A stretch of DNA of 63,668 nucleotides, counting the filler, from Rhabdomonas costata (taxonomy: Eukaryota): NCBI GenBank assembly GCA_019059605.1. It is 56 parts of 56 records of this genome, joined end to end, with 100 filler letters (N's around TTAATTAATTAA, not from the genome) between each part and the next. Parts side by side here need not be neighbours in the genome. Positions count along the whole stretch, not along the records: positions 2,281 to 3,320 come from JAHMHO010031963.1; 55 more parts are not named here. One strand, given 5' to 3'. The notes under the pieces are model-generated. The model was not told where the DNA came from. It searched no databases and saw only the letters and a list, made by a program, of their open reading frames with translations. A program made the position numbers and the translations under genes. Shown piece after piece: positions 2,101 to 46,477 of this stretch; the first letter of the stretch is position 1; the number at the start of each line of letters is the position of its first letter.

Positions 2101-2638
2101 TAATGGCGAAAACATCCGGGGACACCGCTTCCAGATCCCACATCGTATACCGTAGCCTCTCAGGATACAAACCACCACAANNNNNNNNNNNNNNNNNNNN
2201 NNNNNNNNNNNNNNNNNNNNNNNNTTAATTAATTAANNNNNNNNNNNNNNNNNNNNNNNNNNNNNNNNNNNNNNNNNNNNACTTCTGCCTCCGACGTCCG
2301 ATCACTCCAACGGCTCAGCTCTTCTAGCTGAATGATTCTTACCACAAGAAAGCTTAATTTTATACGATTCGAACTTCCAATTCTCTTTACGAAAAGCTTA
2401 CACCATGCGAAACAAAACACGGCATTCCACCTCCACAATAACTTTGTCCACCGCTCAAATTCCCGCTGCGACAACACGAACGCCAAAGAAAAAAGAACGC
2501 AGTTCATTAGCGAAGTTCTCTATCCTGATCCACATGAAAGGTAACAACACACAGCAGCAAAGACAACTCAACTCAGCTCTTCGTCCAACACTACGAAATC
2601 TTCTGCTATATAATACGAAATTCTGCGAAGTTCCTTCT

Positions 2639-3133
2639 TCACAAACGACCATCACCAACTACATACAAAAACAACGTAGTCCACTGAGGCCTCGGCCTCA
2701 GACGACCATCATCTGTGAGGTATAACCTCCCTTTCCATTCCACACCTCGCAAGGTAATTGCCTTCAACAACTTAAACCACTGTGCTGACACCCAGTTAGG
2801 CGTCACCAGTAGCACCCTTAACCTTTCCATACGAATCTTTTCCAACACCAGTGGAATAAGGCTCCACGGTGGGTTCGCATACAAACACACTTCAGGACTC
2901 AACACATATGCGAACGCATTCCACCTTAACGCTTCCTCGTCATCCTCTTCCGGGGTGAAATACCTTGGAAGCTGATGATACCTTCTCGACGCAAACAAGT
3001 CCACACACGGTACGACTAACATTTTGCTACACATAGCCATGAAGATGGTTGATTCCACCTTCATCTCCTCCTCCGGCCCGAAATCTGGGAAAGGAATCCA
3101 TCCTTCAATTCTGTTACGGACCCCGCTCCGCAC
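2639..3133 (-). CDS. DNA N6-adenine methyltransferase of the DIRS-retrotransposon/phage Dam-like type; intronless
   Basis: Motifs VDLFAS..HQLPRYF, NAF, LYANPPWSLIPLVLEKI..E..VLLVTPNW....WF resemble the MT domain of DIRS1-type elements; NPPW is the N6-adenine catalytic motif IV. Confidence 0.8.
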   Translation of the reverse strand: MRSGVRNRIEGWIPFPDFGPEEEMKVESTIFMAMCSKMLVVPCVDLFASRRYHQLPRYFTPEEDDEEALRWNAFAYVLSPEVCLYANPPWSLIPLVLEKIRMERLRVLLVTPNWVSAQWFKLLKAITLRGVEWKGRLYLTDDGRLRPRPQWTTLFLYVVGDGRL

Positions 3134-3250
3134 GGGAATCCGCGGGGGCTGCTCCGCACGGCCCCCTGCCCACTCCGCATGGCTTCACACCAACGGCGGA
3201 CGGGAACCAGGAGCCAAGACGGGCTACTCGTCTTGGCGTGGCCGCCCCGG

Positions 3251-3320
3251 CCGGGTCCGGGAATCGAACCCGCGACCTTGCAGCCACGAGCCCGGCCCCC
3301 AGACCACTCAGACATAAGAC
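3251..3320 (-). ncRNA. tRNA-derived (His-like) pseudo-tRNA or SINE head with Pol III box A and box B
   Basis: Minus strand reads GTCTGAGTGGTCT (box A/D-loop), TCGTGGC (GTG anticodon-like loop), then GCGGGTTCGATTCCCG (T-arm/box B). The anticodon and acceptor stems pair poorly, so it is not a functional tRNA. Confidence 0.6.
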
Positions 3321-7833: not shown

Positions 7834-8084
7834 GTCTCTCAACCTTAAACCACACACAACATACACGCATACACACACAANNNNNNNNNNNNNNNNNNNN
7901 NNNNNNNNNNNNNNNNNNNNNNNNTTAATTAATTAANNNNNNNNNNNNNNNNNNNNNNNNNNNNNNNNNNNNNNNNNNNNGGTTGTGTGTTGTACAAGAT
8001 GTACTAATTAGCAAGAGGAAGCACTTTCCTCTGGCAACATCCCCACTGGATTTAAAACTCGCGTCTAGTAAATGATTATTTCGC

Positions 8085-8960
8085 TCCATTGGAACACTGG
8101 ATGTGCTCTACCTATCAGCTCCTTTGGTATATCAAGAACAAAAGTCGTGTCAGCAATCTTCTTTACAATTGTAACTGGTCCTAAGACTTTCTGCATCAGC
8201 ATCCTTGATGATCTCCAAACCTTCCTACGTAGTGCTTCCTCTTGCTAATTAGTACATCTTGTACAACACACGACTGGTAATCCGCTCTCTTCAGATTCTA
8301 GCACGCTGCTTCCTTTAGGTTCTATTTATCAAACGCTTCTCTAACCTGCTTCAACGCAGCTTTTATCTTCTTTACCTGGTAACGCACTGGTTCAATTTTA
8401 GCTACTGGCCATGGCTGTGGGGTTTCAGGAAGATCCCACCATAACACAGGGTGGTACCCATAATTGAGGTAACAATTGCTGTACTCAGTGTTGGCAATTG
8501 TGGTCAGCACCACAAATTCTATCCCACGATGTACCTGATTTCGCGCACATTAACGTCCGAAACACTTGTTTCATTGTTTGTTTTGTTCTTTCTGCCTGAC
8601 CGTTCGTCTGAGTATGGTACGGCAACGAACTCCTCGACTGTAAATCCAGAAATGCCATTAGCTCTTTCCAAAACAACTACACGAAGATCGGATCTATATC
8701 ACTCACAATGCTCTTCGGCAACCCATGATATCTAACTATTTCTCACCAAAAGAACTCCGCTCTATCATAAGCATTCATCGTATTGTGGCATACGATCAAC
8801 ACTACCATCTTGGCAGCTCTATCAGTCACCGTCAAAATCTCATTTACCACTTGACCACCTCCAGAGAACTTCCATTGCCCCTCTGGAATTTTGACCAAGT
8901 CATGGAAGTTGACTCATACTTGTTCACTGGAACCTCTAGCAGCATTGCAACGTTGACATA
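8085..8960 (-). mobile_element. Decayed Ty3/Gypsy LTR-retrotransposon integrase
   Basis: FWKELMAFL..SLPYHTQTNGQAERTKQT (rve core), YLNYGYHP, and a downstream GP..I..FVLDIP....HPVF GPY/F-like motif. Frameshifts and stops interrupt it. Confidence 0.85.
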
Positions 8961-9179
8961 TATCACAAGTCCGCACATACTCTTTCACATTTCTATTGAT
9001 TTTCTTAAACACAAAAACCCNNNNNNNNNNNNNNNNNNNNNNNNNNNNNNNNNNNNNNNNNNNNTTAATTAATTAANNNNNNNNNNNNNNNNNNNNNNNN
9101 NNNNNNNNNNNNNNNNNNNNTGTGTGGGAAGGAGGGAGGCAAAAGAAGACAGATGCGTTGCAGTTGGCAAGCCCCCCCG

Positions 9180-45442: not shown

Positions 45443-45698
45443 NNNNNNNNNNNNNNNNNNNNNNNNNNNNNNNNNNNNNNNNNNNNTTAATTAATTAANN
45501 NNNNNNNNNNNNNNNNNNNNNNNNNNNNNNNNNNNNNNNNNNGGTGGGGTGTGCCAGTTTTTGTTGTTGTTGGGGGGGTGCTATCGATGTCTTCTGATGG
45601 ATGCGTGTGGTGAAATTGGGCCTTTGGATTACAGTATGCCGGATTCTTGAAGCTGTAGGGTTGGGAGTGGGGGTGGAGTTGGATGGTGGGGGGTGCAG

Positions 45699-46211
45699 GC
45701 TGCGAAGTACGATGACTGGCAGCACACCCTGCTGGAGTGGAAGCAGGCCAACCCTGCGCTGGGGGCCAGCCTGGACGCTTTCGTGCGCGGCCACGTCCCG
45801 AACGACCTGTGCCAGATGATCCCACTTTTCGGGCCCGAGGACAAGCTGGCCACCCGTAAGGCCGGCGCTGAGATTCTGGCGACGATCTCGGCGGCGGTGC
45901 CCAATTTCATCACGGGCAGCGCCGACTTGGCCTCCAGCTGCATGAACGTGATCGAGTTCGCGGGGCATTTTTCAGCCTCGGACTACAGCGGCCGCAACCT
46001 GCACTTCGGGGTCAGGGAGCACGGGATGGCGGGGATCCTCAACGGCATTGCATACGACGGGATCTTCCGCCCCAGCGGCTCCACGTTCATGGTTTTCTCG
46101 GATTACTGCCGGGCCTCCATCCGGGTCGCGGCGCTGTCGCAGCTGCCCACGATATTCATCTTCACCCATGACAGCGTGGGGGTGGGGGAGGATGGCCCCA
46201 CCCACCAGCCG
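45699..46211 (+). CDS. TKT: Transketolase exon (pyrimidine-binding domain)
   Basis: Motifs LATRKA, GSADLASS, GRNLHFGVREHGM, TFMVFSDY and FTHDSVGVGEDGPTHQP, with TGCAG| and |GT borders. Confidence 0.95.
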
Positions 46212-46477
46212 GTCTTTGTGTGTGTATGTGTGTATGGCAGGGTGCAGGTCTCGTTCAATGGCTTGGGCACCCGAATCCCGACTTAGTGGATCTCTCTCCT
46301 ACGACTCATTCTTCTCTCTTCCTCTCTTTGAAAATCCCTCCATCTCTACCACAGCCCCCATCATCGCGTATCTCAGAGACCGGACAGAACCCAACCCCAC
46401 ATTCCGATTTCAGATGGGAAGAGTCAGTCCCAGGAAAAGCTGACTTTAACCCCACAGTTGCAAATAACCCGACGAAG

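Follow-up and report, generated by a model that had tools for sequence, protein, structure and literature searches.

A Dam-like methyltransferase domain beside a tRNA-like sequence in Rhabdomonas costata, probably the severed 3' end of an LTR retrotransposon

The window analysed here, a stretch of 63,668 nt from the Rhabdomonas costata assembly GCA_019059605.1, comprises 56 contigs of 1,021–1,041 bp chained by N50-TTAATTAATTAA-N50 linkers, with a GC content ranging from 36% to 66% per contig across all 56 pieces. The locus in question, an open reading frame (ORF) for an adenine methyltransferase (MT) domain preceded by a tRNA-like head, lies entirely on the minus strand of one contig (JAHMHO010031963.1; Table 1). 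The features listed for it in a first-pass annotation (boxes A and B, the hairpin, the TGCGGAG repeats, the TGA, the ORF, and the DLFAS and NPPW motifs) were all recovered at the positions given in Table 1. Positions that are neighbours in the window are not physical neighbours across a linker, and any feature that touches or crosses one is an artefact of concatenation. The head sits at the contig edge and is cut there, so that the real sequence 5' of the MT domain amounts to 200 nt; because the contig ends inside the head, it cannot be judged whether anything precedes the MT domain. The apparent architecture of the locus arises because concatenated 1-kb contigs were read as one continuous sequence.

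Table 1. Features of the MT contig and of the contig with a related integrase fragment (positions in the window).
Feature	Position	Strand	Remarks
Contig with the whole finding	2281-3320		1,040 bp; linkers on both flanks
tRNA-like module, cut by the contig end	3251-3320	minus	Box A-like and box B; no cloverleaf called
Box A-like TGTCTGAGTGG	3314-3304	minus	10/11 positions of the consensus TRGCNNAGTGG
Box B GGTTCGATTCC	3270-3260	minus	Exact, 11/11
Perfect hairpin GCCAAGACG-N7-CGTCTTGGC	3237-3213	minus	9-bp stem, 7-nt loop
TGA in the MT frame	3187-3185	minus	
ORF, stop to stop	3184-2642	minus	181 codons
Three TGCGGAG copies within a 14-nt GC-rich family	3182-3122	minus	Starts at 3179, 3158, 3132
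Breakpoint	3121-3125	minus	GC drop, start of homology, half of a conserved block missing
Dam-like adenine-N6 MT domain	3121-2642	minus	160 codons, without stop or frameshift
DLFAS motif	3001-2987	minus	
NPPW motif	2875-2864	minus	
TTTTT run inside the ORF	2671-2667	minus	26 nt before the stop codon
TGA stop ending the pol/MT frame	2641-2639	minus	
Non-coding 3' region of the element	2638-2281	minus	358 nt; no long terminal repeat delimitable
Decayed integrase and SH3 fragment	8014-9012	minus	Contig 7981-9020; tblastn with P0001

The MT domain shows clear relatives in retrotransposon polyproteins. Among representative proteins, 2,407 match it at E ≤ 1e-3 and 134 at E ≤ 1e-10. The closest long relative, P0001, aligns gap-free along 156 residues at 58% identity (BLASTP E 9e-61); it is a protein of 875 aa in which the integrase (H2C2 and rve) and SH3 domains are followed by an acidic linker of ~230 residues and a C-terminal MT domain. 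A longer relative, P0002 (1,763 aa; 44% identity, BLASTP E 8e-36), carries protease (PR), reverse transcriptase (RT), RNase H (RH) and integrase (IN), then a linker and the MT domain, and P0004, a protein with RT and Dam, matches with an E value of 8e-15 in BLASTP. At the metagenome locus L007, a gag ORF of 557 aa is followed by a pol ORF of 2,295 aa with protease, RT, RNase H, integrase, SH3 and a terminal MT domain; no long terminal repeats (LTRs) were found within its 11.8 kb. A conserved third ORF after pol was also considered and rejected, the ORFs 3' of the MT domain in L007 and L003 being unrelated. No closer copy of the MT domain was found, the best identities being 58% in the search of representative proteins and 56–58% in that of proteins of near length.

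Sorted by their Pfam architecture, 26 relatives show four placements of the MT domain: after the integrase (7 relatives), after RT-RNase H in the DIRS-like manner (16 relatives), after the protease (P0096 and P0139), and between RNase H and the integrase (P0101). The domain has thus shifted its position within pol several times. A maximum-likelihood tree was calculated for 38 MT domains, namely these 26 relatives, 11 short close matches and the window sequence, with the other matches left out. The window domain falls in a clade of 19 rows (support 100/97) that takes in the 11 fragments and every one of the seven post-integrase rows, the 16 RT-RH-MT, the two PR-MT and the single RH-MT-IN rows all lying outside it; its sister row is P0157 (fork support 94/72). 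From these relationships the ORF is classified as a retrotransposon-type Dam-like adenine-N6 MT domain of the kind found at the C-terminus of Ty3/gypsy pol, not of the DIRS type. The identification as a retrotransposon-type adenine methylase made in the first-pass annotation is thereby upheld, on the pol relatives, the NPPW and DLFAS motifs and the fold, and its label "DIRS-type" has to be given up, as all seven clade members of known architecture are post-integrase Ty3/gypsy proteins and every RT-RNase H-MT row lies outside the clade.

The window sequence holds all 13 columns that are invariant in the alignment A1, in which it is itself counted. The first in-frame ATG of the ORF, at 3064, is located inside the conserved N-terminal motif P.FG.EE.V, at a residue that is Val in the relatives. 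No Pfam family was returned for the 181-aa ORF. The MT part has a GC content of 48% and the tail behind it 43%, and the two (2281-3120, minus strand) have in common that they are poor in C (15%) and rich in G+T (61%). The strand skew of this contig is the highest of the 56.

The AlphaFold2 model of the MT domain (2642-3121) has a predicted local distance difference test score (pLDDT) of 90.6. Its nearest solved structure is PCIF1, a cap-adenosine-N6 methyltransferase (Foldseek E 8e-5, TM score 0.64), with which it aligns in VIA-align over 146 residues with a Z score of 11.4 and a root-mean-square deviation (rmsd) of 3.5. For T4 Dam, the values are Z 8.4 and rmsd 3.0 over 111 residues, and for E. 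coli Dam Z 7.9 and rmsd 3.8 over 119 residues. The rRNA adenine methyltransferases KsgA, DIMT1 and Erm (Z of ~9) come ahead of the DNA Dam enzymes (~8). The predicted fold is that of a class I S-adenosylmethionine (SAM)-dependent adenine-N6 methyltransferase. It does not discriminate between substrates, and RNA or an RNA-DNA hybrid is as conceivable a substrate as DNA. In intact elements, the domain would presumably act as part of the Pol protein on adenine in the nucleic acid of the element.

The same kind of element is present elsewhere in the window. The integrase and SH3 fragment on another contig is 52–55% identical to residues 132-479 of P0001, and it is decayed, with two frame changes and six in-frame stops in ~335 codons. 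P0001-like elements, with their MT domain behind the integrase, are therefore present in this genome, although no physical link can be drawn between the two contigs.

At its upstream end, the MT domain is separated from the head by a sharp breakpoint. BLASTP homology to P0001 begins at residue 22 of the ORF, which corresponds to position 3121, and in tblastx from 18 related loci no match touches 3320-3120. At the same place the GC content falls by 24 points, the head having 72% and the MT part 48%. In four of the five closest relatives that reach this region (P0001, P0156, P0021 and L001), a block ED.[FY][GV]EV.L stands just upstream of the MT domain, and the MAFFT alignment opens a gap of nine columns in the window sequence exactly there. 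The second half of this pre-domain segment is retained in the window (VRNRIEGWIPFP vs VLKKLERHLPLP) and the first half is absent; the break is therefore not at a natural domain boundary. Similarity to RT or RNase H was not detected in the 200 nt upstream (3320-3121), and the first-pass annotation was right that the MT domain is separated on this contig from the remainder of pol. Judged from the sequence, the junction looks secondary.

The head (3320-3121) is of a different character. Its box A-like element and its box B, counted from start to start, lie 44 nt apart, which is the tRNA spacing. Box B on its own is not significant (one match against 0.44 expected, and at least one match in 35 of 100 shuffles), and the joint chance expectation of box A with at most one mismatch and an exact box B at this distance is ~0.0009 per window, which makes a tRNA-derived origin of the head likely. 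A tRNA as such was not found: ARAGORN called no tRNA gene in the head with its default and three relaxed settings, Rfam gave for the head only a T-arm-like tmRNA match of 18 nt (10.1 bits, E 0.11) and for the whole window, at the gathering thresholds, no match, the acceptor and anticodon stems are unpaired by inspection of the sequence, and folding at minimum energy yields a long hairpin (z -2.18). Of the tRNA-like module proposed in the first-pass annotation, the boxes and their spacing stand and the cloverleaf does not. The perfect hairpin carries little weight, because perfect 9-bp stems with loops of 3–10 nt occur 14 times in the window (~10 sites). In the 14-nt repeat family, copies 2 and 3 are each 86% identical to the reference copy and are spaced by 21 and 26 nt, the last copy adjoining the junction. 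The MT frame has three stops within the head, the TGA of Table 1 and two further upstream, and two of the three sense frames are open throughout.

Further copies of the head were not encountered. In blastn against the window, the other 55 contigs included, it matched only itself and three short chance segments; the pattern of box B and hairpin had no match in metagenome contigs, a 26-nt stretch had none in either genome contigs or viral contigs, and the 85-aa ORF of the head gave 13 candidates in the protein collection, none at E ≤ 10. This lack of copies of the head, and likewise of the junction and the MT domain, says little, because the genome of the host itself lay outside the searches. 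The head was also considered as a primer-binding site and rejected in this role: such sites are antisense and 12–18 nt long, whereas the tRNA-like part extends over ~70 nt and is in sense orientation on the MT strand.

These observations are probably best explained by the severed 3' end of a DAM-LTR retrotransposon that adjoins an unrelated tRNA-derived repeat. DAM-LTRs are Ty3/gypsy LTR elements with Dam-like domains; they are described, as are orphan remnants that consist of the DAM domain only, in the accessible part of a preprint (bioRxiv 10.64898/2026.05.21.726589, May 2026), so that the class is not new, although the first-pass annotation did not recognise the architecture as described. 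The segment 3120-2281 (minus strand) would be the 3' end of such an element, in which the last 160 codons of pol encode the Dam-like adenine-N6 MT domain and the stop codon is followed by the non-coding tail; in intact relatives, the MT domain comes after protease, RT, RNase H, integrase, SH3 and a long linker. The GC-rich segment 3320-3121, with its A and B boxes, would be unrelated to it and probably a repeat that is tRNA-derived or resembles a short interspersed element (SINE). The two parts would have been joined secondarily, by nested insertion, rearrangement, template switching during reverse transcription, or a short-read mis-join, between which we do not decide. A SINE-like sequence in a retrotransposon copy, the alternative that the first-pass annotation had itself named, is close to this explanation. 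The unit is most likely an ordinary fragment and neither a designed gene nor a mobile cassette, and the cassette reading is unsupported.

Several points weigh against the severed-fragment explanation. A 160-codon frame free of stops has a chance of ~8e-5 at the same composition, and the contrast between the intact MT frame and the decayed integrase fragment implies that the MT copy is young or that the domain is under constraint. Head and MT domain share their orientation. The sister row P0157 likewise lacks the upstream block, so the argument from the cut block holds for four relatives out of five. On the 160-aa core, Pfam Dam (PF05869) reaches no more than 13.6 bits (E 0.054), below the cut-off of 28.1; the same family is found at E ≤ 1 in 10 of the 15 members of A1, and the more distant relatives P0004 (39 bits) and P0101 (33.8 bits) are above the cut-off. 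No second copy of the head, the junction or the MT domain turned up in the other 55 contigs, in the metagenome, genome and viral contigs scanned, or in the protein collections. In the metagenome loci L001 and L003, finally, a single in-frame stop interrupts a pol frame that is open before and after it: in L001 a TAA at 632-634, preceded by 210 open codons and 12 codons ahead of the MT homology, and in L003 a TAG at 429-431, preceded by 142 open codons and 5 codons ahead of it. These single stops could be due to chance, to a separate product or to programmed readthrough. Taken together with the intact MT frame and the decayed integrase, they hint that in this lineage the methylase may be produced separately or under the control of readthrough.

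A special case of the severed-fragment explanation is that the contig itself is an assembler chimera, in which the 3' end of a DAM-LTR was put together with an unrelated tRNA-like repeat rich in GC; the junction would then be absent from the genome. Like the other 55, this contig is an unplaced piece of ~1 kb, a kind of leftover that typically consists of repeats, the base composition changes in a sharp step at 3121, and in the accessible part of bioRxiv 10.64898/2026.05.21.726589 assembly artefacts are named, for one lineage, as one possible source of chimeric DAM elements. The repeat at the junction, however, is only 10–14 nt long, which we judge too short to mislead an assembler, and nothing positive indicates a mis-join; we regard it as rather unlikely. 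Far less probable is that the head is no foreign sequence at all, but the GC-rich pol linker of the same element, frameshifted and resembling a tRNA by chance. The linkers before the MT domain are indeed long and unconserved in the relatives (rich in Gly, Ala, Pro and Ser in P0156), two sense frames run openly across the head, and the tRNA programs reject it; against this stand the joint expectation for the two boxes, the 24-point GC jump at the junction, and the absence of the conserved pre-MT motif from the MT frame, the one frame in which it was formally checked.

A real stand-alone or mobile methylase, with the tRNA-derived head as its promoter or retroposition signal, or with the severed domain domesticated by the host, would account for the intact ORF with all the residues invariant in the family and for the A and B boxes at tRNA spacing in sense orientation, and the single stops in L001 and L003 may likewise speak for a separate or conditional product. 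T runs terminate RNA polymerase III (pol III), whose transcripts normally go untranslated; expression of the ORF by pol III is unlikely, because the TTTTT run lies inside it. Besides, three stops in the MT frame separate the head from the domain, the first ATG would truncate the conserved N-terminal motif, the junction lacks the upstream half of the conserved block, no copy is found in the other 55 contigs, and no protein in either search is more than 58% identical. We consider such a methylase very improbable, and with the contig ending in the head, the ED.FGEV.L block missing, and the ATG and T5 run placed as they are, the stand-alone, tRNA-headed cassette of the first-pass annotation is not sustained. 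We give as little credence to the related idea that the severed MT domain is kept as a separately expressed working unit, be it a host gene that arose by domestication or a non-autonomous retroposon using the tRNA-derived head. What speaks for it is that the 160-codon frame is intact, the integrase is decayed, and a single stop precedes the MT domain in two environmental copies.

As found, the locus matters little: it adds one fragment to the LTR elements with a Dam-like methyltransferase, a class described in 2026. Should the junction prove to recur and to be expressed, this methylase would be the first of its kind seen to escape its retrotransposon, which would bear on how mobile elements manipulate chromatin marked with N6-methyladenine (6mA).

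Elsewhere in the window, an open frame on the plus strand (45651-46283), in a contig with a GC content of 59%, resembles the pyrimidine-binding domain of transketolase. Its closest atlas clusters are bacterial, and it may come from a contaminant or a mixed assembly.

In comparison with known systems, the MT domain of the window is homologous to that of DIRS1-like elements, the DLFAS and NPPW motifs being common to both. According to the accessible part of the source (PMC3266345), the latter carry RT, RNase H and MT in pol together with a tyrosine recombinase, whereas the window domain lies outside all 16 RT-RH-MT rows. A remnant that likewise retains an MT domain after the loss of RT is INT1 of the Chlamydomonas mating-type locus; it differs in being derived from DIRS and in keeping RNase H and the tyrosine recombinase, as far as the accessible text of its description goes (bioRxiv 10.1101/2022.06.16.496473).

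Like tRNA-derived SINEs, the head has A and B boxes spaced as in a tRNA, a stem resembling a T arm and, downstream of the tRNA-like part, a GC-rich body. It differs from them in that no cloverleaf is detected, that further copies, a tail and target-site duplications were not seen, and that its 5' end is lost at the contig edge. In chimeric retrocopies that arise by template switching, such as U6-L1, a small pol III RNA is fused to the 5' side of the 3' portion of a retroelement. The window shows the same arrangement, in that a small-RNA-like head in sense orientation immediately precedes the 3' end of a retroelement truncated at its 5' side. However, U6-L1-type chimeras are made by the reverse transcriptase of long interspersed elements (LINEs) and end in poly(A), and neither this origin nor a poly(A) end is seen in the window.

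The closest parallel is offered by the DAM-LTRs. The accessible part of bioRxiv 10.64898/2026.05.21.726589 reports Dam-like domains in at least four independent Ty3/gypsy lineages and a mixed one; expression of representatives in dam-deficient E. coli gave no rise in 6mA, and RNA-DNA intermediates are proposed there as the substrate. The window shares the MT domain with these elements, clusters with the post-integrase Ty3/gypsy domains, and keeps the NPP motif with its flanking aromatics, but it has no more of such an element than the final 160 codons and the 3' tail, with RT, integrase and LTRs not on the contig. In the same part of the preprint, 46.1% of eukaryotic DAM proteins are without transposable-element features, and orphan DAM-only sequences are put down to fragmentation, incomplete assembly and nested insertions. 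The window resembles these orphans in having a DAM domain with no transposable-element domain in the same ORF or contig, and differs from them in its tRNA-like neighbour, the words SINE and tRNA being absent from the main text of the preprint. The window fragment thus fits the orphan DAM class, and its placement with the post-integrase elements fits a DAM-LTR.

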